Positions 2,928 to 28,777 of a DNA stretch of 45,796 nucleotides are shown here, piece after piece. Positions within the stretch are counted from its first letter, which is position 1. Each line of letters opens with the position of its first letter. The position numbers and the translations under genes are program-made. The DNA is taken from assembly GCA_964609495.1 (NCBI GenBank), contig CAZSTA010000004.1, positions 1 to 45,796 of the forward strand, given 5' to 3'. This stretch comes from an uncultured bacterium. Lineage in GTDB: Bacteria; CAZSTA01. The notes under the pieces were generated by a model. It had not been told where the DNA came from and ran no database searches. It worked only from the letters and a program-made list of their open reading frames with translations.

Positions 2928-3089
2928 CTTTATATTCTCCTTTCTCTAAAATTATCGAACTTCAGCTCTCGACCATATCCATCTTAAGGGTAATTCCACG
3001 ACTGAGGGGGAATAATCGCAATGCTTATAGATAGAGTTGATTACGATTAGACGCTTCAATATGTCCGCATTTGGAAGTATATCAACTTA

Positions 3090-3118
3090 ATTATATTATA
3101 TTTATCTGAGATTATCAA
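3090..3118 (-). promoter_or_regulatory. Sigma70-type promoter for the FGE/gcvH genes
   Basis: Minus strand TTGATA-17 nt-TATAAT. Confidence 0.65.
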
Positions 3119-3347
3119 GTATTTTTTAGTGTTGGAGATAAATATCTTCTTATATCACCTCCGAATTATGAGGGAGTGAATCGCTATAAGCTGATCATAG
3201 GCTTATCAATAAAGTATTTCTCACAGCTCGTAATGAATAGGTAAGAGGCGAAAATTGGGATAGCTTTTGGAGACAACTAGGCAGGGTAGCTATAGGATAA
3301 ATCGTTTCGCTCGGAAGTCTGTAGATATACTGGTAGTGATAAAACCT

Positions 3348-3621
3348 TCACCTGTAATATTGAGCCTGTGTTTCAAACAAGCGCGCATACATTCCACCGC
3401 GATGAACCAGTTCGTTATGAGTGCCATTTTCAATGATTCTCCCATCCTCCACTATCAGCTTCATAAGATAGAGCGACAGCAGGGGTAGCACGCCTTGCAC
3501 AACAAGAATCGCCAGACTGGCTATCGTCCAGCCTGGCGCGCTTTGCCAGACAAGGCGCAACGCAAAATCAAGTCCGTAATACACGCTGTATTTTAAGTCT
3601 TGTTGATTCGCCTATCCGCAT
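3348..3621 (-). pseudogene. ABC exporter (permease/ATPase) remnant with large internal deletion
   Basis: N-terminal TM segment (ALRLVWQSAPGWTIASLAILVVQGVLPLLSLYLMKLIV) fused directly to the extreme NBD C-terminus (EDGRIIENGTHNELVHRGGMYARLFETQAQYYR). An upstream ATG at 3621 (MRIGESTRLKIQRVLR) is out of frame by one base. Confidence 0.8.
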
Positions 3622-3668
3622 ATATAGAACTTATGCCGAAACATAATTCCAGTCTAAGATGAAGGGAT

Positions 3669-4694
3669 TCATACTGCTTCCAAGAGCCTGGACATGATGA
3701 TACGGCGGCGCTGTCCCCGTCGAACCTCTTTCTCAAGTTGACTATCTAGTTTGGGAATGGAGATCTGCCGAAAGCCCATCTTGCGGTAGAGATTGATAGC
3801 AGTCCTGTTCTGCTCAAAGACTAGGAGATTCATCGTAGCGCCGCCCTCCTCGGCTGCTTTTCCCATCGCCATGCGCAACAGCCCTTCGCCAATGCCTGCC
3901 CCCCGATAGCGCATGCGGACCAACAGGTTGAAAAGCCACCACTCGGGGTAAAGGTCTGCATTCTCAGGGAACCGCCTGACGACCACTGCACCTGCGATAC
4001 CTTCTCCTACACTAGCGATCAAAGTATATCCACAATCCTCCAGGCTATCTATCTGCCTGGCGAATGCCCCAACAGGCTCTCCCAGTTCGGGAAATCTCTC
4101 ATAGCCGTGGAGCCTAGAGAGGTCAGAGGCATCCTCGACTGTGGCGAGGCGATAGCGAACTTGCTTGCAGATCAGCTTCCTCGCTAAGGCACGGTAGAAC
4201 TTGCTCCCTTGCAGGCGGCGGAGAAGCCAAGAAGCAATTCGCCTGCCCATCCTCGCCAGCCGAAAGAGCAGGTGTCTAAGGGGATGAAGATTTATCCACA
4301 ATAGCGCCGCCAGCCGCCAGAAACCTTGATCCAGACGGATGACCTTCTTTCCCCACTGAACGCTCACCACCCGGCCCAGCACCTGCTCCGCCTGAACCCA
4401 CTCATCGGGACTGGGCGTTGCATCCCCCCGCATCGCCAGCACCACCTGGCCATCCCGCGCCTCCCTGCCGACGACCCGATGAGCGACTAATCGCTCCTCG
4501 GCCGCGCGATAGAAGGCTACGTCTCCCACATTCAGGTCATCAGCCTTGGTGGGCTGGACAGTGAGGATATCTCCATCTTGAATGAAGGGGAACATACTCC
4601 AGCCACGAGCTTCAAAGGAGAAGGAGCCCCCCTGAGCAAGAATCTCAGCAGATAGCTTCGCAAATTCAGCTCCCTTAAGGGTCACTTGACGCAT
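3669..4694 (-). CDS. S24/S26-family peptidase domain fused to a C-terminal GNAT acetyltransferase
   Basis: N-terminal GWSMFPFIQDGD and VAHRV motifs; C-terminal YRGAGIGEGLL and NRTAINLYRKMGF GNAT motifs. Confidence 0.82.
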   Translation of the reverse strand: MRQVTLKGAEFAKLSAEILAQGGSFSFEARGWSMFPFIQDGDILTVQPTKADDLNVGDVAFYRAAEERLVAHRVVGREARDGQVVLAMRGDATPSPDEWVQAEQVLGRVVSVQWGKKVIRLDQGFWRLAALLWINLHPLRHLLFRLARMGRRIASWLLRRLQGSKFYRALARKLICKQVRYRLATVEDASDLSRLHGYERFPELGEPVGAFARQIDSLEDCGYTLIASVGEGIAGAVVVRRFPENADLYPEWWLFNLLVRMRYRGAGIGEGLLRMAMGKAAEEGGATMNLLVFEQNRTAINLYRKMGFRQISIPKLDSQLEKEVRRGQRRRIIMSRLLEAV

Positions 4695-5566
4695 CGCACG
4701 AAATCCACCACGCTTTCGTCAGGCACAAAGCCTAGTTCGTAACATGGCACGCTGGCCACCAGTTGGGCACAAAAGTCGAGGGTGAAGCTCATCCCCTCCG
4801 CGTTCCACAGTGGTGGGAAACAGCGAGTCAACAGCATCGAGGAGGCGGTAACCCCTTCCTTGCGGCGGGCGCTGTTGGCCTCGGCGTGGCGAAGGAAAAA
4901 GACCTTCTCCAGTGGGACACCCTTAGGCGAGACGCTGGTATAATCGCTATGCCAGGGAGTGCCATACATCCAGAAGCGACCCTCACGCCGACGCAGCACG
5001 ATGCGATCGTCGTTGAGGACGAGTGCCTGGTTCCCCCAGAGCCGGGCCATAGTCGTCTTGCCGTGGGTGGAGCTGCCGGCGAAGAGGTACCCCCGTCCAC
5101 TGTCATCAATGCCGCAGGCGTGGATCATCAACCCTCTGCCCTGTGCCAGCAAGCATATCATCAGCACTTCGGGGAGAGGAAACTCCAGCGGATTGGGTAG
5201 AAGACCTTCTGGCGTCTCTCCGGGCTCAGGGATGTGACTGTAAACCTCTCCCTGCTGGAAGTCGGCATCGAAGATTGCAATGCGGTAGGGGAGCGGACCG
5301 GCGGCGGGCGACCTCAGCGCGAAGATATTCTGCCCACCGATCCGGTAGAGGCTCCAGATCATCTCTGAGTCGAAGACCTTGTTCTCGTCTCGGAGGGGGA
5401 TTTGAGGTAGGCCATCGTAGCGGGCGTGGATGGTGACCTCTGGCTCCTCAGTGCAAAGGAAGTCTCGGTACACCTCCTCCAGACGGATCGATTCCATCGG
5501 CTGATCACTGATGATGTCAAAAACGATGTTCGCGATCTTGACTAGCATATCATTTTGAATTCCCAT
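4682..5566 (-). CDS. HPr-kinase-like P-loop protein (ScmC-like accessory of radical SAM cassettes)
   Basis: MIHACGI, Walker A GSSTHGKTT, LNDD and GTPW motifs; overlaps the next gene. Confidence 0.7.
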   Translation of the reverse strand: MGIQNDMLVKIANIVFDIISDQPMESIRLEEVYRDFLCTEEPEVTIHARYDGLPQIPLRDENKVFDSEMIWSLYRIGGQNIFALRSPAAGPLPYRIAIFDADFQQGEVYSHIPEPGETPEGLLPNPLEFPLPEVLMICLLAQGRGLMIHACGIDDSGRGYLFAGSSTHGKTTMARLWGNQALVLNDDRIVLRRREGRFWMYGTPWHSDYTSVSPKGVPLEKVFFLRHAEANSARRKEGVTASSMLLTRCFPPLWNAEGMSFTLDFCAQLVASVPCYELGFVPDESVVDFVRCVK

Positions 5567-5740
5567 TCACTTTTCACCAGAACAACTATATCTTGGTAGC
5601 TGTGATACCATCGAGAGCAAGTCGATAAACTGGTTATACTCGAGCACATAGACACACAGACAACCACCGGTCTTACCCCGGGTGCCTGAATCTGTTTTGC
5701 AACTTGATAGTATCGCCTCTATTATATATTGTAACCTTGA
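5567..5740 (-). pseudogene. Leaderless second core-like segment in frame after the precursor D stop
   Basis: Reads SRLQYIIEAILSSCKTDSGTRGKTGGCLCVYV...SGEK*. Nucleotides 5687-5720 duplicate 5774-5810 (EAILSSCKT vs EAVLSGCKT). Confidence 0.5.
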
Positions 5741-5902
5741 CTAAGACACCGGAGGACCAAGAGGCCCAATGATTGAATCTCCTGTTTTGCAACCTGATAG
5801 CACCGCCTCTTTGACCACCAGTTTAACCTGTTTCAACTGCGGTTTGCGATATGGCTGCCTGGTTGTCCTCCTTTCCACTCTCTTCCCCTCTTTCTCCATC
5901 AT
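5741..5902 (-). CDS. Putative RiPP precursor D (53 aa)
   Basis: MMEKEGKRVERRTTRQPYRKPQLKQVKLVVKEAV-LSGCKTGDSIIGPLGPPVS*; AAGGAGG RBS; YxxPxL leader motif. Confidence 0.8.
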   Translation of the reverse strand: MMEKEGKRVERRTTRQPYRKPQLKQVKLVVKEAVLSGCKTGDSIIGPLGPPVS

Positions 5903-5986
5903 TGCTTCCCTCCTTTCTGCTTGGTATTTAATCTAAACGCTCATATTGGATTCTGCGTGCTTAGCTAAAAATGTCCTTACTTCATA

Positions 5987-6091
5987 ATCACCCTCCCCTA
6001 ACCCCTCCTGTCAAGGGAGAGAGAACTAAAAGGAGCCAGCTTATCTCAATGTTCTCCCTCCCCTCGTGGGAGAGGGCTAAGGTGAGGGAGG
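5987..6091. repeat. REP-like doublet palindrome, copy 1
   Basis: Reverse complement aligns with 24794-24904 and 8135-8224. Confidence 0.8.
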
Positions 6092-6109
6092 AGTCATATC
6101 TTGAACTCA

Positions 6110-6241
6110 CTAGCGAAGATTATAAGGAATCGTAGCTAGCACTGCCTCTTTGGTCATCAGTTTGATCTGTTTCAACTGCGGTTTGCGATATGGCTGCCTG
6201 GTTGTCCTCCTTTCCACTCTCTTCCCCTCTTTCTCCATCAT
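6110..6241 (-). CDS. Putative RiPP precursor C (43 aa)
   Basis: MMEKEGKRVERRTTRQPYRKPQLKQIKLMTKEAV-LATIPYNLR*; same RBS and leader as D. Confidence 0.7.
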   Translation of the reverse strand: MMEKEGKRVERRTTRQPYRKPQLKQIKLMTKEAVLATIPYNLR

Positions 6242-6290
6242 TGCTTCCCTCCTTTCTGCTTGGTATTTAATCTAAACGCTCATATTGGAT

Positions 6291-6390
6291 NNNNNNNNNN
6301 NNNNNNNNNNNNNNNNNNNNNNNNNNNNNNNNNNNNNNNNNNNNNNNNNNNNNNNNNNNNNNNNNNNNNNNNNNNNNNNNNNNNNNNNNN
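6291..6390. other. Assembly gap (100 N) inside the precursor repeat array
   Basis: N run; 6236-6290 and 6391-6445 are the same 55-mer. Confidence 0.98.
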
Positions 6391-6458
6391 CATCATTGCT
6401 TCCCTCCTTTCTGCTTGGTATTTAATCTAAACGCTCATATTGGATTCTGCGTGCTTAG

Positions 6459-6584
6459 CTAAATAGGAGTGCCAATAAACATCACTGCCTCTTTGATCAT
6501 CAGTTTGACCTGTTTCAACTGCGGTTTGCGATATGGCTGCCTGGTTGTCTTCCTTTCCACTCTCTTCTTCTCTTTCTTCATCAT
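6459..6584 (-). CDS. Putative RiPP precursor A (41 aa)
   Basis: MMKKEKKRVERKTTRQPYRKPQLKQVKLMIKEAV-MFIGTPI*; start overlaps the rSAM stop (ATGA). Confidence 0.7.
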   Translation of the reverse strand: MMKKEKKRVERKTTRQPYRKPQLKQVKLMIKEAVMFIGTPI

Positions 6585-7687
6585 TGCTTTCCTCCTTTCT
6601 GCCTGGCGTTTAATCCAAAAGCCTCTGCCCTAGCGTGGGCGATCTGGCAGAGGTAATTCACCAGTGCCTCTTGGTCGCCGGTTTCCATCCACGCCCAGCC
6701 GGGGCACTGACTGCACAGTGAGATCAACTCACAGCTCTTGCAGGGCGTCTCCCGTGACCACTTCTGCGCCCGCACGCGGGCTATGAACTCGTGCCATCCC
6801 TCGCGGAACCTCCCCTGACGCAAGTTATAACTGGAGACACGGGACATCATACAGGCGCTCAACTGTCCGTAAGGATCAATGTGGAAGGTTCTTAACCCCG
6901 CGCCGCACTGGTAGAGGTATTCAGGGTGGGGAGGCGATCCCCGGAATTTATCGCAGAACTCGCGCCAACTCTTCATCCGCTTCTCGTCTGCCAGATCCAG
7001 TGCTACTACCTCCTCAGGGGGAATTCTGAACTTCGCCGGCTTCTGGTCACCATCCAGTCGCACATTCAACACGGGATCGAAGCGGAAGCCCACGTCCAAC
7101 CCCTCGGCATAAGCTTCCATATCCCAGACCTCATGCTTGTTCAGCGTCATGATCACACTCTTTAGCTTGAGGGAGAGTTTGCGCTCCATCAGCAACTCGA
7201 TCCCCCTTATGCACCGCTCGTAGGAGCCAGGAACGCCGGTGACCCGCTCGTAGGTCTCCTGGGTGCGACCATAGAGGGTAATCTCCACGGCGAACGGGCG
7301 CCACTCAGCCAGGTGGTCGGCGATGCGGGGGGTGATGGTGGTGCCGTTAGTGAATATGGTAATCAGCAACCCTTTCTTCTTGGCATAGGTGTAGATATCG
7401 AGAAAATCAGGACGGATAAAGGGATCACCGCCGGTGAGCAGCAGCCATAGGCAACCTTCGTCCACGATCTGATCCAGAAGATCGCACAGTTCCTGATAAC
7501 TCAGTTCCCTTTCCCTCGCATCCCGGTCATCAGCAGGCAGATTGATGTAGCAATGGGCACAGTGCAGGTTACAGCGAGCAGTGACCTCGATGCTACCGGT
7601 GATGGGGATGCGCTGACTGGCTACCTTGTCATGCAGACTCTTGCTGAACTCACCGTAGCTGGTAATAGGAATATACGGACATTCCAT
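6581..7687 (-). CDS. Radical SAM/SPASM-domain peptide maturase
   Basis: CNLHCAHC, TGGDP; SPASM cysteines CGAG...HIDPYGQLSAC and CKSCELISLCSQCP. Confidence 0.92.
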   Translation of the reverse strand: MECPYIPITSYGEFSKSLHDKVASQRIPITGSIEVTARCNLHCAHCYINLPADDRDARERELSYQELCDLLDQIVDEGCLWLLLTGGDPFIRPDFLDIYTYAKKKGLLITIFTNGTTITPRIADHLAEWRPFAVEITLYGRTQETYERVTGVPGSYERCIRGIELLMERKLSLKLKSVIMTLNKHEVWDMEAYAEGLDVGFRFDPVLNVRLDGDQKPAKFRIPPEEVVALDLADEKRMKSWREFCDKFRGSPPHPEYLYQCGAGLRTFHIDPYGQLSACMMSRVSSYNLRQGRFREGWHEFIARVRAQKWSRETPCKSCELISLCSQCPGWAWMETGDQEALVNYLCQIAHARAEAFGLNARQKGGKQ

Positions 7688-7688
7688 C

Positions 7689-7994
7689 TTAAACCTCCTT
7701 TACAGCACCAATTTCCTCCAACTGCTGAAGAAACTTTATAAGATCCACTTCCGCCTCCTCTGGGCTCACCTCAAACTCCCCAACGATTGCCTCTCTTATT
7801 TCCTCCACTCGTTTTTCGCCGTCGATAAGTTCCCAAATGCGACTAGCAACTTCGTCCATAGTATATATACTTTCGACATCTCCAACTTTCTGTCGAATCG
7901 GAACCAGAATGAATTCGTCAGCAATCTTTCTCGAGACGATGGATGGATCCTTGGCGAAGCGTTTCTCAAGATAATCGGTACTCTTTATCTTCAT
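7689..7994 (-). CDS. PqqD-family RiPP recognition element (RRE)
   Basis: SRKIADEFILVP...YTMDEVASRIWELIDG...EFEVSPEEAEVDLIKFLQQL. ATG 7994 with AGGAGG RBS is preferred over the track start at 8045. Confidence 0.92.
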   Translation of the reverse strand: MKIKSTDYLEKRFAKDPSIVSRKIADEFILVPIRQKVGDVESIYTMDEVASRIWELIDGEKRVEEIREAIVGEFEVSPEEAEVDLIKFLQQLEEIGAVKEV

Positions 7995-8086
7995 ATTCCC
8001 TCCTGTTCTGATGTTGTATAGCTTAAAGCAACCAAAGTCCTTCATTTATGTGCAATTCTTTCTACTTTTTCTTTGATTAATTGAGT

Positions 8087-8272
8087 CGCTCATATTCGCA
8101 TAAGGTGCGCTATAATGAGCGAAAGAAGTAATTTCCTCCCTCACCCTATCCCTCTCCCACTAGGGGAGAGGGTTAGGGCTACTCTCTCTATTCCCCCCTC
8201 CTCGATGGGAGGAGGAAGGGTGATTGCGAAATAAAGACACTTTAGCTAAGCACGCAGAATCCAATATGAGCG
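8087..8272. mobile_element. MITE-like element containing a REP-like doublet (8135-8224)
   Basis: Bounded by inverted 10-mers CGCTCATATT (8087) and AATATGAGCG (8272). 8241-8272 is the exact reverse complement of 5938-5969 and 6432-6463. No target-site duplication seen. Confidence 0.6.
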
Positions 8273-8305
8273 AAAATCTTAGCTTTGTGATCTATTTAGT
8301 CTCTC

Positions 8306-9478
8306 TTAATCCAGTCTTTTACTTAGAGATAGGGCGGCTTTTCCTCTGCTAATTAACAACTTAACTGGACGGAGAAGGTAATAGAGAGGGAGAAGAAAAG
8401 GATGTTTGATATTATAACATTTAATCATATAATCTCGGTAGGGGAAGATTCTAATCAATAAAATTTTGATCTTTGTCATTAATTTCCCATCAAATATCGA
8501 TCTTGAAGATATATCTAACCCGAATTCAGCTCTTATATAATAGAACATAGCTCTCCACCAATTTAACTTAGTAGAGCCGAATTCATCAAAAACACGAGGG
8601 GGGATAGGGGTATAAAATAGTTCTGTCAATTGCTTAAAAGTTCTTATCACCGGTATTATTATTATCAATTTTAATCCCTTGGCTCTATTTATTAACTTAT
8701 CCCAATCTAGGTTATCTTCATAGTAACGTATAACTTGATCTATATCATAGAACCAAAGTAAATAGTTAGATGATGGGTGGTTTACGGCAAGATGATAGCA
8801 AAGATAAATAATCAAATCTTCGGGACACAGGATTAACGTGGAGACATCGGAAATCTCCACCTCTATAGCATTCTCCCAAAATTGGTCGATAGGATCGGTC
8901 TCTACATAGTACGAATAATCGGAGAGATTCCAATGAATCTCTAGTTTTAAATGAGGACTATCCTGTTTTATAAATGGCAGCTCCTTTCCAAAGGTCTCAT
9001 TATATTCCTGGCAAAGTTCATAATCATGAATCATACAGGCATATCCTAGCTCAGTCAACACCTTCTTTACTTCGAATAAATCCTCTCTCTTAACTAGGAG
9101 ATCGACATCACACATCGGTCTCAGTGCAATATTTTTATAAACTATCTCCGCTAAGGCAGCGCCTTTAAGGACGATCACTTCTATCCCTTTCTGCTTAAAA
9201 GCGCGAAGAATCTTGCCAAGCTCATAATACATCACGATATTGGAAGCCATATTACTATAATAAGATTGCCTAAGCTTCTCTATGACCCAGGGAGGGATGG
9301 TATCTATTCTACCATTTTTTCTCAACTTATTATAGATAAGGGGAGAGATACCTTCCCTTCCAGCCTGCTCTAAAAATAATTGCCAATCAACATCAGGAGC
9401 AGAGTCGAGATTATTATTCAAAAGAGATAAGAGAACAGCATCGACATTAGACATTAGATCGCACCTAGATATTGTCAA
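8306..9478 (-). CDS. Uncharacterised nucleotidyltransferase family protein (NTP_transf_5-like)
   Basis: VIVLKGAAL, LRPMCDVDLLV, LEIHW, LLWFYDI motifs. Confidence 0.85.
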   Translation of the reverse strand: MTISRCDLMSNVDAVLLSLLNNNLDSAPDVDWQLFLEQAGREGISPLIYNKLRKNGRIDTIPPWVIEKLRQSYYSNMASNIVMYYELGKILRAFKQKGIEVIVLKGAALAEIVYKNIALRPMCDVDLLVKREDLFEVKKVLTELGYACMIHDYELCQEYNETFGKELPFIKQDSPHLKLEIHWNLSDYSYYVETDPIDQFWENAIEVEISDVSTLILCPEDLIIYLCYHLAVNHPSSNYLLWFYDIDQVIRYYEDNLDWDKLINRAKGLKLIIIIPVIRTFKQLTELFYTPIPPRVFDEFGSTKLNWWRAMFYYIRAEFGLDISSRSIFDGKLMTKIKILLIRIFPYRDYMIKCYNIKHPFLLPLYYLLRPVKLLISRGKAALSLSKRLD

Positions 9479-9552
9479 ATTATCTGATGACTCTTCACGA
9501 CCGAAGGACAGAAGATTCTTGGGAACACCGAACTTTACCCTTCCTTGGTCAT

Positions 9553-9581
9553 ATTATAGCTTAAGATTAAATAATTGTCAA
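9553..9581 (-). promoter_or_regulatory. Consensus sigma70 promoter at the head of the RiPP cluster
   Basis: Minus strand TTGACA-17 nt-TATAAT. Confidence 0.8.
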
Positions 9582-9799
9582 TTAATTGATAATAATTATT
9601 AATCAAATAATTGTCATACCGCAAAATTCCCTCTCTGACTAATGATCTTTGACAAATTGGAAGTTAGGGGATGAGATATTATGCCCCCGCTTCTACTTAC
9701 ACCTCTGAAACTATTTCCCATCTTATTATATCATAAATTTTAATGATTTGGAAAAGATGATAAAGTTGTTTCTCTAATCATCTCCTCCAGATAAAGATA

Positions 9800-11671
9800 T
9801 TATGATCGCAGGGTATCCAATTCCCTCTTCAATTCCCAAAATCTCTTATTCAACTCTTGGGCTTCCTCACTTTCCTCAGCTAAATTCATCTCTCCTAGCT
9901 TATAATTGAGAAGAGCGATCTGATGCTCTAGAAGTTTCAAACGTTTCTCCTTCTCATCTATTGCCTCGCCTATATGCTCCCACTTGCTATAGCTTTGAAG
10001 ACGTGCTCTGTCCTTTTTCTTCTCCTCGTAGTAACTATATCCACCCGGATAGCAGATCGCCTTTCCGTCCCATAACTCGATTATCCTGTCTGTTATCTTA
10101 TTCAGAAGATATCTATCGTGAGAGACCAATAGGATCGTCCCTGGGAACTCAGCCAGTGCCTCCTCTAATATCTGGAGGGATGATATATCAAGGTGATTCG
10201 CTGGCTCATCTAAAACTAAGAGATTAGCCTCGGATATTACTAGCTTGGCTAAGATCATCCTCGATTTCTCTCCCCCGCTTAAGTCTTTCACCTTCTTAGC
10301 GAAGATCTCCTTCTCCGAAAAGAGGAATCTTGAGAGAAGATAGTGGATCTCATTCTTCGTCATATCCTTCTCCGATCTTATCTCGTCGTAGAGATTATTC
10401 TCATAGTTCAATCCCGCTAGCTTCTGATCGCAGTAGCTTATCGTCAGGTTGTTTCCCAAGATCACCTCCCCGGAATCGAATGGTTCATTTCCCAGGATTA
10501 TGTTAAGCAAAGTAGTTTTCCCAGTGCCATTAGCTCCTACCAATCCTACCTTCTCCCCCCAACGGATGGTGAAATTCACATCCTCGAAGAGGAGCTTATC
10601 CTCGAAACTCTTGGCTAGATCACGAACCTCGATCACTCTCTCTCCGCTTCTTCCTTTAAGCTCGATATCAAGTTTGATGCTATCAGCTCGGCGGGAACTC
10701 TTTCCCAGATCTTTTTTGAGTCGTTCAAGTCTCCTCGCGGCTGTTCTCGCTTTTCTCGCCAGCTTCGCCGCTTTCCTTCCATAGAAATCACTTCCGCTTT
10801 TAGGTCCATTTTGGATCTTCTGAGATCTTCCCTTGATCTCTCTTACTATATCATCTAGTCGCTCTATCTCAGCCCTTTTTCTATCATAAGCTTGTTGAGC
10901 TTGACGGAAGCGAAGCTCTTTTTCCCGAACATAATAACTATAGTTTCCGGCATAGTTAGAGAGCTTGCCAAATTCTAACTCCACTACTCGATCAACCAAT
11001 TTATCCAGGAAATAGCGGTCATGGGAGACTATGACCATTGCTCCCTTGAAGTTCTGGAGAAAATCCTCAAGCCATTCCGTCATATTGATATCAAGATGAT
11101 TAGTAGGCTCATCGAGGAGAAGAAGTTCAGGATCAGTGAGGAGAACCTTGGCTAACTCGATTCTAGTTCGTTCTCCCCCACTAAAGGAATCCACCGGGCG
11201 ATCGTAAACTTCGGGTTCGAAACCAAGACCACTCATAATCTTATCTATCTTACTTTCGTAGGTGTAGCCGCCTTTATGCTCAAAGGCGGCTTGCCACTCC
11301 CCATACTCCTTGAGTATCCTCTCCAGATCCTCGTTATTCTTCTCGCTCATCTTTTTCTCCAGCGTCCTCATCCTCTCGCTCATCTCGATTAGGGGTTGAA
11401 ATACAGTCATTATCTCTTGATATAAGCTGATCTCGGAGAGAAGAGATGGCTCCTGCCTAAGATATCCCAAGCGCAAATTCTCACGAGGGGATACTTGTCC
11501 TTTATCCGGCTTCTCCAAACCCGCGATGATCTCGAGCAAAGTGGTCTTACCACTGCCATTTCTACCGATAAGACCGATTCTCTCCCGATCATTTATCGCC
11601 AAGGTTACCTCCCTGAAGACCTCAAAAGCTCCGTAGGATTTCGTTACGTTATCCACGCTCGCTATTATCAA
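9800..11671 (-). CDS. ABC-F family ATPase (ribosome-associated, possibly resistance type)
   Basis: Two NBDs (GRNGSGKT, FSGGE, LDEPTNHLD; GANGTGKT, LSGGE, LDEPANHLD), no TM helices, extended linker, C-terminal coiled coil. Confidence 0.92.
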   Translation of the reverse strand: MIIASVDNVTKSYGAFEVFREVTLAINDRERIGLIGRNGSGKTTLLEIIAGLEKPDKGQVSPRENLRLGYLRQEPSLLSEISLYQEIMTVFQPLIEMSERMRTLEKKMSEKNNEDLERILKEYGEWQAAFEHKGGYTYESKIDKIMSGLGFEPEVYDRPVDSFSGGERTRIELAKVLLTDPELLLLDEPTNHLDINMTEWLEDFLQNFKGAMVIVSHDRYFLDKLVDRVVELEFGKLSNYAGNYSYYVREKELRFRQAQQAYDRKRAEIERLDDIVREIKGRSQKIQNGPKSGSDFYGRKAAKLARKARTAARRLERLKKDLGKSSRRADSIKLDIELKGRSGERVIEVRDLAKSFEDKLLFEDVNFTIRWGEKVGLVGANGTGKTTLLNIILGNEPFDSGEVILGNNLTISYCDQKLAGLNYENNLYDEIRSEKDMTKNEIHYLLSRFLFSEKEIFAKKVKDLSGGEKSRMILAKLVISEANLLVLDEPANHLDISSLQILEEALAEFPGTILLVSHDRYLLNKITDRIIELWDGKAICYPGGYSYYEEKKKDRARLQSYSKWEHIGEAIDEKEKRLKLLEHQIALLNYKLGEMNLAEESEEAQELNKRFWELKRELDTLRS

Positions 11672-24793: not shown

Positions 24794-24904
24794 CCCCCCT
24801 TACCCTAGCCCTCTCCCACTAGGGGAGAGGGAACATCGATCGAGATAGAGCTGATCTCTTTAGTTCCCCCTCCCTTGATGGGAGGGGGTTAGGGGGGAGG
24901 GTGG
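24794..24904. repeat. REP-like doublet palindrome, intact copy
   Basis: CCCTTACCCTAGCCCTCTCCCACTAGGGGAGAGGG...CCCCCTCCCTTGATGGGAGGGGGTTAGGGGGGAGGG. Confidence 0.85.
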
Positions 24905-25156: not shown

Positions 25157-26938
25157 CTATTCTTTGACCTCGATCAACCAGGCTTGATGGGTAGCACCGG
25201 CATCATTTTCCACTATTATCTCCGCCCTGTATTTACCAGCTTTTCGAGGTATCCAAGTTATCTTACCGCTTCGGGGATCGATCCTTAAATCGACTGGGAG
25301 TAGAGCTGACCAGAGGATCGGTTCATCCCCTATCGCTTTCGCTCTTCTATCTTCATCATAGTTATAAACTTCTCCTACTTTGGCGATTCCTCGGGGAAAG
25401 GAAACTATAGCCGGAGGGATAACTGGATCAAGCTTATATAATATTATTCCCTTTCCCTCTTGAAAATTATCATCGCGAAATTGAAATATCACTCCTGCGG
25501 TATTATAGCGAAAGTAGAGGTCGGGATGATAGGCAAAGTATTCGCTTCTTTTTCTTCCCTCTGTAGGAGCTAACTTAGCTATTCCTATATATTCTCGACC
25601 GTTCCACTGCTCTAAGGAGGTCGGGTTATAGGAGATATAATCTAAGCAGATAATATAAGGATTATCGAGATTGGGAGGATTAAAGGAGATATTAGCACTG
25701 TAAGTATCCGCTTGCATCTTATCCCCCTGATCGTCCCATTCTCTGGGGTGAAAGGTGAAGCTACCTCTGGACATCTCCCAACGCGCCAGATTGGCGAAAG
25801 TTAGCAGAATAGAGCCATCTATCTCCCCCTGGTAATCTTCAAGGATGCTCTTTACTATAGAATATATACTGGGATTATACGGAGTGAGATTGAGCCAGCG
25901 ACCGATCTGAGATTGATAGTCGGGAGAATTAGTAGAGCCTTCACCATCCACATAGTCGCATATAGTCTGAGAGTCGATATATATGTTATTAAAGAAGGTA
26001 TTCGCGAAACATCTCATATCCTCTTCGGTAAAAACTATCCCCGCCAAGTAGCACTGGATAGCGAAATCAACAACGATAGCCGCATGGGATATATCCTCTA
26101 TCTCGCCTTTCCTCCCATATTTGTTCCATATATAGGAGTTATTATCAGTTAAATGCAAAGATTTCTTGATATGATAGGCTAAACGCGCTATTTTGTCCAA
26201 ATATTCGTCCTTCCCAGTTGCTCTATAGAGGAAAACTAGGGTGCGACCCATAGCGGCAGAGTGATTGAGAGGTAATTCTCTTTCTTCTTGGAAAGCATAA
26301 TCCTTCGGAGAGATGTAATAACCCTCGTCTGAATAGACCCTCCACTGATCGTTATGAGCTTCTACGGTCTCCTCAATTTTAGCTAGGTATAAATCTGCTT
26401 TCTCTCTATACGTTCTTCCATCATAAGTCGTTTCATACCATAGAACTCGATCGTTATATACTAGATAGACGAATTTAGCTATCGGATAGGTTATCATTCC
26501 GGAGTGAACCAGATAGCAACGAGGCTTATCGGAATAGGATATATTTATCCAACAAGGATTTATCAACCCTCTATAATCTTTAATTCCTCGAACATCATCT
26601 CTTTTATTCAACACGTTATCTATATGATCGGCAAGTTTATCTAAATAATATACCTCTCTCGTTTTTTCATACATAGATATATAGCCCATCATTATATATG
26701 ACTCTCCCCAGGCTAGAGTGCCATATTCATTATCGGAATGTTTGTAGCCATTGCCATTATTGAGTTTGGCATCTAGCTTATCGAAAGTTAAACGTGCTGT
26801 TACCGAGGAAGCTATTTGGAAGGTAGGGAAAAACAAAGATATCGAAATTAAAATGAGAATAACACTCAACTTAGATGACATATCCATCTGACCTCGCTCT
26901 AAGATAGTTTTAGTTCTATCTACCGTTTTTATTGACAT
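25157..26938 (-). CDS. Secreted protein, probable alpha/alpha-toroid (glycoside-hydrolase-like) domain with C-terminal Ig-like domain
   Basis: Signal peptide from M at 26881/26887 (likely true start); LYRATGKDEYLD-type repeats; C-terminal IDPRSGKITWIP...G.Y motif. Confidence 0.6.
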   Translation of the reverse strand: MSIKTVDRTKTILERGQMDMSSKLSVILILISISLFFPTFQIASSVTARLTFDKLDAKLNNGNGYKHSDNEYGTLAWGESYIMMGYISMYEKTREVYYLDKLADHIDNVLNKRDDVRGIKDYRGLINPCWINISYSDKPRCYLVHSGMITYPIAKFVYLVYNDRVLWYETTYDGRTYREKADLYLAKIEETVEAHNDQWRVYSDEGYYISPKDYAFQEERELPLNHSAAMGRTLVFLYRATGKDEYLDKIARLAYHIKKSLHLTDNNSYIWNKYGRKGEIEDISHAAIVVDFAIQCYLAGIVFTEEDMRCFANTFFNNIYIDSQTICDYVDGEGSTNSPDYQSQIGRWLNLTPYNPSIYSIVKSILEDYQGEIDGSILLTFANLARWEMSRGSFTFHPREWDDQGDKMQADTYSANISFNPPNLDNPYIICLDYISYNPTSLEQWNGREYIGIAKLAPTEGRKRSEYFAYHPDLYFRYNTAGVIFQFRDDNFQEGKGIILYKLDPVIPPAIVSFPRGIAKVGEVYNYDEDRRAKAIGDEPILWSALLPVDLRIDPRSGKITWIPRKAGKYRAEIIVENDAGATHQAWLIEVKE

Positions 26939-28488: not shown

Positions 28489-28517
28489 TTCACAATGACC
28501 TAATATTCTTAGTCTTT

Positions 28518-28777
28518 CCCCTCACCCTAGCCCTCTCCCACCAGGGGAGAGGGAACATCGAGATGGAGCTTAAGTCTATGCTTTGCATTATCTCTCGTCC
28601 CCCTCCCTCGATGGGAGGTTCTGTCAAAAATTAGCTCTCTAAATTGAAGCTGAAGCTAGATTTTATATGGTCTCTTGACTACCCCCCCCACCTTTCATCG
28701 CACCAGTTCAGCAAATTTTCGACTTTTTTCATTCTATTTTTTACAGAGCCCGATGGGAGGGGGATAGGGTGAGGGTG
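28518..28777. repeat. REP-like doublet interrupted by a MITE
   Basis: Aligns with 24794-24904 once 28617-28758 is removed. Confidence 0.8.
28617..28750. mobile_element. 134-bp non-autonomous MITE with IS6/ISL3-like ends
   Basis: Terminal inverted repeats GGTTCTGTCAAAAAT and GGCTCTGTAAAAAAT (13/15); 8-bp direct repeat CGATGGGA at 28609-28616 and 28751-28758. Confidence 0.85.

Follow-up and report, generated by a model that had tools for sequence, protein, structure and literature searches.

The leader of actinobacterial lasso peptides carries a YxxPxL motif that is bound by the B1 protein (PMC6784204). Tailored members of that class are described in PMC8498205, where homologues of HPr kinase act on the linear precursor and phosphorylate its C-terminal Ser, a nucleotidyltransferase of the pseudomycoidin pathway, sometimes fused to the B2 protease, places a hexose on that Ser phosphate, and albusnodin is acetylated by a GNAT enzyme. 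A second described system is the SynChlorMet (Scm) cassette (NCBIfam TIGR04248–04251; Pfam ScmC), in which a PqqD relative, a radical S-adenosylmethionine (SAM)/SPASM enzyme and an ScmC-like protein are found in one operon, and for whose product no paper was found in the literature searched. The gene cluster considered here lies on the minus strand at positions 3348–9581 of a 45,796-nucleotide stretch of DNA from an uncultured bacterium (contig CAZSTA010000004.1; the whole stretch is termed the window), and is likened in part to both systems.

The cluster is read here, with a probability of about 0.68, as one copy of a large and unnamed family of cassettes for peptides made on ribosomes and modified after translation (RiPPs), related to but distinct from SynChlorMet, with the copy in the window partly acquired and probably crippled. 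According to this reading, the family core comprises a PqqD-family RiPP recognition element (RRE), a single radical SAM/SPASM enzyme, a precursor peptide, an ScmC-like P-loop protein with a kinase fold and a soluble S26 peptidase, with the nucleotidyltransferase and the GNAT domain as optional additions that are often joined to the peptidase; in the window, tandem duplication and a host repeat element would have rearranged the substrate array, and the exporter would have been deleted. A scan restricted to one genome per species returned at least 572 related stretches confirmed by tblastn, of which the best 80 were kept, and the presence of each gene at these loci was scored by tblastn with the window proteins. 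The kinase-like gene was found in 73 of the 80 loci, PqqD in 71 and S26 in 55, with all three together in 53; the nucleotidyltransferase was matched in 18 loci and the GNAT part in three. Several of the loci that appear to miss a cassette part are contig fragments of 1.9–2.6 kb. An earlier note on this DNA had proposed an uncharacterised radical SAM RiPP-type cluster with an unusual tailoring set. The first half of that description is supported, whereas the second is not, as PqqD, the radical SAM enzyme, the kinase-like protein and S26 form the core of the family and only the GNAT part is rare, with the nucleotidyltransferase as an accessory. No description of the cassette was found in the literature, in a search that did not extend to subscription-only papers or supplements.

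The radical SAM enzyme has relatives in more than 120 protein clusters at 63–81% identity, the nearest at 81%, and the few that carry a name come from KSB1, Nitrospirae, Acidobacteriota and Desulfobacteraceae. In a tree of these enzymes, which is a quick tree only, the window protein groups with those of loci L013 and L050 (Shimodaira–Hasegawa-like approximate likelihood ratio test (SH-aLRT) support 94, not starred) and the phyla are interleaved; no donor is drawn from it. In the same tree the enzyme of L016, from a member of the Dongiaceae (Pseudomonadota), is nested in an acidobacterial clade beside L028 (SH-aLRT 99), a placement that may reflect transfer or a binning error. The tailoring activities are also joined in single polypeptides: S26, GNAT and nucleotidyltransferase domains form one 693-aa protein in L007 (3892–5973), where the window splits these activities over two genes, and S26–nucleotidyltransferase fusion proteins are found in L046 and L073. 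These fusions tie the tailoring genes together. Among the Nitrospiraceae, loci L069, L075 and L076, each seen whole, have three radical SAM genes together with a kinase-like gene and a nucleotidyltransferase gene, and L077, on a shorter contig, has two radical SAM matches and no PqqD match.

The precursors of the family were collected with a peptide hidden Markov model (HMM) seeded with 33 peptides, which were picked from the 80 loci by a regular-expression motif and include none from the window. The model matched 64 small open reading frames (ORFs) in 62 of the 80 loci, as well as all three readable peptides of the window. The earlier note had named an absence of adjacent YxxPxL peptides from the radical SAM homologues as a finding that would refute it; by the peptide HMM, peptides with a YxxPx[LIV] motif lie beside them at 62 of the 80 loci. 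The family consensus is KKPYxKPxLxxVxLxPEEAVLxxCKxxxxxGPxxxxCxxxxxCxxxGS. The relaxed motif [YFW]xxPx[LIVMF] is present in 59 of the 64 ORFs and strict YxxPxL in 25, and of the 59 motif-bearing peptides, 53 contain exactly three Cys downstream of it, while C[KR] is present in 55. The core is 24–25 residues long, with the three Cys spread through it and a Gly-Ser end. The C-terminal residue is Ser in 57 of the 64 ORFs (preceded by Gly in 42) and Thr in four, compared with a background of 11.4% Ser-ended and 1.15% Gly-Ser-ended among 10,991 small ORFs of the same loci. The nearest species-level relatives, L013 and L001, carry canonical three-Cys peptides, and the peptides of the Nitrospiraceae loci (L069 and L075–L077) have an EQAILxACS junction and three to seven Cys, with a second, truncated copy in L076. 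A profile of 34 peptides run against 5.8 billion proteins identified at least 1527 protein clusters, which span Acidobacteriota, Nitrospirota, Myxococcota, Chloroflexota, Omnitrophota and further phyla; all names displayed read "hypothetical protein". All 120 database matches listed have three Cys, CK or CR, and a Gly-Ser end. Across these 120 peptides the mean pairwise identity is 0.77 for the last 24 leader residues and 0.56 for the core, with 98 distinct cores, and one identical 25-residue core turns up in 14 of the listed clusters, behind leaders that differ.

The strong conservation of the core scaffold and the recurrence of that one core could also be expected if the product were not a secreted antibiotic-like RiPP but a physiological compound that is itself conserved, for example a peptide with a redox or metal-binding role, or a cofactor derived from a peptide as pyrroloquinoline quinone (PQQ) and mycofactocin are. 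Both of those pathways resemble the cassette in their discrete PqqD/MftB-type RRE, radical SAM/SPASM enzyme, dedicated peptidase and short peptide, and the weak NCBIfam matches in the window include the PqqD and MftC models. The occurrence of the family across many phyla, the lack in most related loci of an exporter match to the stub in the window, and the continuation of the S26 frame of Acidobacteriota into giant Peptidase_C25/DUF11 proteins point the same way. The cassette differs from PQQ and mycofactocin, however, in that it is without a downstream cofactor-tailoring set, with no PqqB/C- or MftD-type enzyme in the window by NCBIfam or Pfam, and in that its core varies more than its leader; the radical SAM enzyme scores 74.5 bits on the PqqE model (cut-off 381.35) and 104.5 bits on the MftC model (cut-off 265). 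A leader more conserved than the core is the usual pattern of a RiPP and not that of a cofactor precursor, and because of it the cofactor explanation is weakened and is considered improbable.

Table 1. Features of the cluster and its surroundings in the window (positions in nucleotides of the window)
Feature	Position	Strand	Evidence or remark
Sigma-70-type promoter-like site TTGACA-17-TATAAT	9581..9553	-	12/12 consensus, best in 3000–10000; match only
NTP_transf_5 nucleotidyltransferase, 390 aa, TTG start	8306–9478	-	PF14907, E 6.9e-61
Repeat element, inverted copy, between nucleotidyltransferase and PqqD genes	8134..8272		pairwise alignment
PqqD-family RRE, 118 aa	7689–8045	-	PF05402, E 2.7e-17
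Radical SAM/SPASM enzyme, 368 aa	6581–7687	-	Radical_SAM E 2.1e-20, SPASM E 0.0019
Peptide gene 1, 41 aa	6459–6584	-	full leader, tail MFIGTPI, no Cys; peptide HMM E 5.6e-6
Peptide gene 2, at most 38 codons to next stop	6280–6396	-	upstream spacer and ATGATG shared with genes 3 and 4
Peptide gene 3, 43 aa	6110–6241	-	full leader, tail LATIPYNLR, no Cys; peptide HMM E 9.4e-7
Repeat element, about 155 nt, between peptide genes 3 and 4, with dispersed REP-like motif	5938..6092		pairwise alignment
Peptide gene 4, 53 aa	5741–5902	-	leader, EAVLSGCK, one Cys, C-terminal Ser; peptide HMM E 1.4e-10
Leaderless core-like relic (..EAILSSCKTDSGTRGKTGGCLCV..)	5570–5740	-	in frame after gene 4 stop
ScmC-like P-loop protein, HPrK/PEPCK fold, 294 aa	4682–5566	-	ScmC 31.8 bits, HprK_rel_B 23.9 bits (NCBIfam)
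S26 (SipW/archaeal-type) peptidase–GNAT fusion, 341 aa	3669–4694	-	sigpep_I_arch 58.9 bits, Acetyltransf_1 E 1e-12
ABC exporter stub, 78 aa	3348–3584	-	last ~32 residues match MsbA/HlyB-type extreme C terminus, E 2e-7

The precursor genes of the window (Table 1) share the leader MMxKExKRVERxTTRQPYRKPQLKQxKL..KEAV, whose copies are 76–82% identical to one another, and YRKPQL, which conforms to the lasso YxxPxL motif, is present in all three readable peptides. The genes are preceded by a conserved Shine-Dalgarno-like spacer and begin with ATGATG. Peptide gene 2 cannot be read because it is covered by a run of 100 N at 6291–6390. The earlier note had taken these ORFs as precursors, and small leader-bearing ORFs are indeed present, but they are not equivalent, and only gene 4 keeps the core features of the family. 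The stop codon of peptide 1 is located inside a repeated 32-nt element, and that of peptide 3 falls at the border of the repeat element. Downstream, a 29-nt direct repeat, 90% identical, relates the start of the core-like relic to the gene 4 junction. A protein-database search with peptide 4 alone matched only the window's own peptides.

The two inverted copies of the repeat element have one arm of 32 nt that is 100% complementary and another of 35 nt that is 91% complementary. Its motif, GTGGGAGAGGG.TA.GGTGAGGGAGG, which resembles repetitive extragenic palindromic (REP) sequences, has four matches in the window and none in 100 shuffles, with two copies in the cluster (6066–6091 and 8135–8160) and two in intergenic positions elsewhere (24794–24819 and 28516–28541). 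The element is taken to belong to the host, because its REP-like core is also found at 24794 and 28516. A guessed palindromic motif for the element gave no matches and was replaced by the element's own sequence. The inverted copies bracket PqqD, the radical SAM gene and peptide genes 1–3, and the pair may represent a past inversion or an insertion resembling a miniature inverted-repeat transposable element.

An unlikely alternative, although one with some features in its favor, is that the cluster is fully working and that all three or four small ORFs are true substrates, yielding short Cys-poor peptides in which the radical SAM enzyme makes a C–C or C–O link or epimerises a residue. The five enzymes are intact with their catalytic residues kept, every peptide gene has its own spacer and start, the leaders are well conserved, and the C–C-linking SPASM enzymes PqqE and SuiB are among the PDB matches. 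These features have to be set against the three-Cys core of 53 of the 59 family peptides and of all 120 listed database matches, the location of the stop codons of peptides 1 and 3 inside repeat copies, and the reduction of the exporter to 78 aa. Moreover, no such short Cys-free core is seen among the relatives, where the one similar truncated copy is the second ORF in L076. The preferred explanation is that the window copy is probably crippled, or at best gives a non-canonical one-Cys peptide from gene 4.

The catalytic residues of the radical SAM/SPASM enzyme are retained in the window protein, with C39, C43 and C46 as well as C261, C279, C316, C319, C325, C328 and C347 invariant in 24 homologues. 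The enzyme has the CX3CX2C motif and the seven-Cys SPASM pattern of sactipeptide and ranthipeptide maturases, and by profile its nearest solved structure is the thioether-forming SkfB (E 1.9e-18), followed by PqqE (1.1e-12), with CteB (4.8e-7) and SuiB also matched. The cassette resembles the systems of SkfB, CteB, PapB and AlbA in placing such an enzyme beside a peptide that bears Cys in most of the family; those maturases have the RRE as an N-terminal domain, whereas the cassette has a separate RRE, a kinase-like partner and a Gly-Ser-ended core, and on the StsB, AlbA and PapB models of NCBIfam the window enzyme is far below the cut-offs. It reaches no NCBIfam cut-off at all, the highest score being 115.6 bits on the AhbD model (cut-off 500), and by these scores the cassette belongs to no curated radical SAM maturase family. 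Membership of a characterised non-peptide family, which the earlier note had named as evidence that would count against a peptide pathway, was thus not observed above any cut-off. Heme d1, heme b and MoaA models do form the top NCBIfam rows, but they span only the N-terminal radical SAM half (residues ~33–195) at 74–116 bits, with cut-offs of 284–650. A non-peptide function was rejected because these matches are partial and below the cut-offs, and because peptides adjoin the radical SAM homologues.

The PqqD protein has its best NCBIfam matches to lasso_PqqD_Bac (34.8 bits, cut-off 80) and ScmD (31.4 bits, cut-off 100), and is thus below the cut-off for a lasso B1 protein. When PqqD was modelled in complex with peptide 4, the prediction scored 0.52, compared with 0.01 for the best of three controls, with runs agreeing in at least 92% of contacts and a partner pLDDT of at least 54. 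This was graded as weak support: 116 of 157 solved complexes reach the mark used, as do 2 of 215 mismatched pairs, and at scores of 0.60 or below only 18 of the 157 do so, together with both mismatches. The pass may reflect likeness to solved RRE–leader complexes.

For the kinase-like protein, an alignment of 37 sequences (the window and 36 of the 73 loci, chosen by an ORF length near that of the window) revealed invariant H149, G169 and K170 and a conserved GxSGxGKS/T motif. It has no match in the Pfam copy used, the Pfam ScmC model included. Its neighbors in the Atlas are auto-named ScmC, with Pfam ScmC in 38–73% of members (score 0.97), and its profile matches in the PDB are mostly generic P-loop proteins (a designed P-loop protein and ABC ATPases). 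The PDB profile search is not decisive, because the matches are generic and HPr kinase/phosphatase (HPrK/P) is reached only at E 6e-4. A predicted model of high confidence (pLDDT 96) matched phosphoenolpyruvate carboxykinase (PEPCK) in Foldseek at E 1e-6 (TMq 0.46) and HPrK/P (1knx) at E 4.3e-5 (TMq 0.30). This putative HPr-kinase-fold enzyme adjoins Ser-ended precursors, both for the 57 of 64 family peptides described above and for peptide 4 of the window.

The Atlas neighbors, the presence of Scm models among the matches and a shared parts list raise the question of whether the cassette is a bona fide SynChlorMet, as the earlier note had thought it to resemble. The resemblance holds at the level of the superfamily and not at that of the Scm equivalogs, since all four models score 31–85 bits with cut-offs of 100–400: ScmC (TIGR04249) 31.8 of 125, ScmD (TIGR04248) 31.4 of 100, ScmE 84.6 of 400 and ScmF 82 of 400. 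L076, a relative with three radical SAM genes, is also below the Scm cut-offs, and on these scores Scm membership was rejected for both. The cassette differs further in that S26 is a near-constant partner, in that a precursor family is identified, and in its single radical SAM gene, two such enzymes (ScmE and ScmF) being what defines the Scm cassette. Thus, a true SynChlorMet is very improbable.

The S26 domain scores above the cut-off of 51.85 bits for sigpep_I_arch, and S33, M34, H72 and R73 are conserved in all of 54 sequences and D91 in 53. No 19-residue window of the S26–GNAT protein reaches a Kyte–Doolittle value of 1.6 (maximum 1.56); there is no anchor-like stretch, and therefore the S26 protein is read as a soluble peptidase that would be dedicated to leader removal. 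In acidobacterial and Chloroflexia relatives, open frames that start with S26 continue into very large proteins carrying Peptidase_C25 (gingipain-like) and DUF11 domains (L033 10459–16392, L034 10165–16488, L032 2743–6612 and L009 10084–13086), either as fusions or as adjacent genes in the same frame. The GNAT part of the window protein has the motif RGAGIG, read from its sequence. In the nucleotidyltransferase, G106, D124 and D126 are invariant in 13 of 13 cassette-linked homologues. A sequence search with this protein against the PDB gave nothing meaningful; the best structural matches of its predicted model (pLDDT 80) are the small-molecule O-nucleotidylyltransferases ANT(2'')-Ia, MenT1 and LnuA (E 6e-4 to 4e-3, TMt 0.6–0.68). 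The exporter stub retains one hydrophobic, transmembrane-like stretch (residues 17–46) joined to the tail of the ATPase domain.

Taken together, the leader, RRE, kinase, nucleotidyltransferase and GNAT have their closest functional analogue in the tailored lasso peptides, a likeness that the earlier note had overlooked. As in clusters of the paeninodin, pseudomycoidin and albusnodin types, a leader of the YxxPxL type and a PqqD-family RRE encoded as a discrete protein occur together with a putative HPr-kinase-fold enzyme next to Ser-ended precursors, a nucleotidyltransferase that is in some cases fused to the leader peptidase, and a GNAT. Unlike in those clusters, the places of the cyclase and B2 are taken in the window by a radical SAM/SPASM enzyme and by a Ser/His peptidase of the S26 type. 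Neither an Asn-synthetase-like lasso cyclase nor a transglutaminase-like B2 protease was found among the window ORFs of at least 150 aa with NCBIfam and Pfam, and in the same search the YcaO and Lan enzymes were absent, in agreement with the earlier note. Since it lacks both the cyclase and the B2 protease, the cassette is no lasso cluster. The cores differ as well, lasso cores having a ring pair of Gly/Ala-1 and Asp/Glu-7–9 and the cassette family three conserved Cys. By analogy, the cassette may be described as a lasso-like tailoring kit on a sactipeptide- or ranthipeptide-type enzyme, within the broad group of ScmC-bearing cassettes.

A route for the family can be proposed on this basis. 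Like lasso B1 proteins, the PqqD protein would bind the YxxPx[LIV] leader, and the radical SAM/SPASM enzyme would cross-link the core through the three conserved Cys, most likely as thioethers. The kinase-fold protein would then phosphorylate the conserved C-terminal Ser while the peptide is still linear, and the nucleotidyltransferase could place a nucleotidyl or sugar group on the Ser phosphate or hydroxyl. Subsequently, the S26 Ser/His peptidase would cleave the EEAVLG|xCK junction inside the cell, the GNAT would acetylate the new N terminus or the junction Lys, and an ABC exporter would release the product. It is tentatively suggested, at somewhat less than even odds, that the family constitutes a new RiPP class, in which a lasso-type recognition and tailoring module works with a radical SAM/SPASM cross-linker and a soluble S26 leader peptidase where lasso systems have the cyclase and the B2 protease, and whose product would be a cross-linked peptide of ~25 residues with three Cys, phosphorylated on its C-terminal Ser and possibly nucleotidylated or glycosylated.

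Several observations weigh against the favored interpretation, both of the family and of the copy in the window. For every member of the family, cross-link type, phosphorylation and cleavage site are drawn by analogy, and the likeness to the lasso kinase and nucleotidyltransferase is set by their described function, not by their sequences or by PF14907 membership. The kinase-like model is closer to PEPCK than to HPrK/P, with modest TM-scores, and in its profile alignment with HPrK/P (E 6e-4) the P-loop region alone aligns. The peptide HMM matches in the 80 loci are partly circular, as the seeds came from those loci. The nucleotidyltransferase and GNAT are without a counterpart in most of the 80 loci and, because of this absence, cannot be essential to the family product. 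In the window itself, peptides 1 and 3 stop 7–9 codons after the leader with no Cys and no terminal Ser, and peptide 4 contains a single Cys where the family has three; the window copy therefore gives no support for Cys cross-linking, as its peptides break the three-Cys rule. Finally, the intact and highly conserved enzymes, with the radical SAM protein at 81% identity to its nearest relative, speak against advanced decay.

The cluster forms the single co-oriented run behind a consensus promoter that the earlier note had described, with every listed gene present. Promoters were scanned over 3000–10000, and terminators were scanned as well, with shuffled sequences as controls. Promoter-like sites numbered 22, compared with 8.7 ± 3.6 in shuffles, and because so many occur in the same scan, only the perfect match stands out. 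A single terminator hairpin was found, inside the exporter stub, and such sites were fewer than in the shuffles.

The higher GC content that the earlier note had suspected for three of the genes was confirmed by calculation. Thirty genes of the window outside the cluster have a GC content of 0.441 ± 0.031 and a third-position GC content (GC3) of 0.455 ± 0.051, compared with 0.569 for the S26–GNAT gene, 0.581 for the kinase-like gene and 0.561 for the radical SAM gene (z 3.9–4.5; GC3 0.62–0.72). PqqD is host-like at 0.434 and the nucleotidyltransferase gene low at 0.364, and the cluster is therefore a compositional mosaic. In 18 related loci used as a family control, the cassette genes mostly follow the GC content of their own locus (0.41 for the locus and 0.44 for the radical SAM gene in L013; 0.37 and 0.39 in L007), so that the GC excess is not a trait of the family. 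The GC-rich part fits recent acquisition or recombination. The proposal of a horizontally acquired pathway for cross-linked peptides is in keeping with this excess in its first element; as to the second, the pathway may no longer run here, because the array is rearranged and mostly lacks the three-Cys core.

The rest of the window is ordinary chromosome, with genes for DnaB, L9, YchF, LigA, a membrane pyrophosphatase and Rnf subunits. An ABC-F protein is encoded immediately upstream of the promoter of the cluster, at 9800–11671 on the minus strand, and scores 520 bits on a "ribosomal protection-like ABC-F" model (cut-off 380). Just downstream of the cluster are two tandem paralogues, also on the minus strand (262–1587 and 1647–2927), with C-terminal matches to the same FGE-sulfatase-type models; the second, the only one of the two that was run against Pfam, matched FGE-sulfatase plus PEGA. 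A further ORF of 593 aa (25157–26938, minus strand) matched no model of NCBIfam at E ≤ 1e-10 and none of Pfam at E ≤ 1e-4.

ScmC-like cassettes have been present in family databases, but without a product, an assigned precursor or a paper in the literature searched. They now gain a family of precursors whose sharp signature consists of a leader of lasso type, the EEAVLGxCK junction, three Cys and a terminal Gly-Ser, and if the reading as a new class is true, a precursor type is supplied for the orphan SynChlorMet-like cassettes. The order of reactions borrowed from lasso tailoring is testable. The window copy would be a poor choice for reconstitution, for which L013, L001, L007 or an acidobacterial locus is better suited. 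If the proposal is true, modules for RiPP recognition and tailoring swap between class-defining enzymes, here a cyclase and a radical SAM enzyme, and the family would represent a soil- and sediment-wide class of peptides from rarely cultured phyla.

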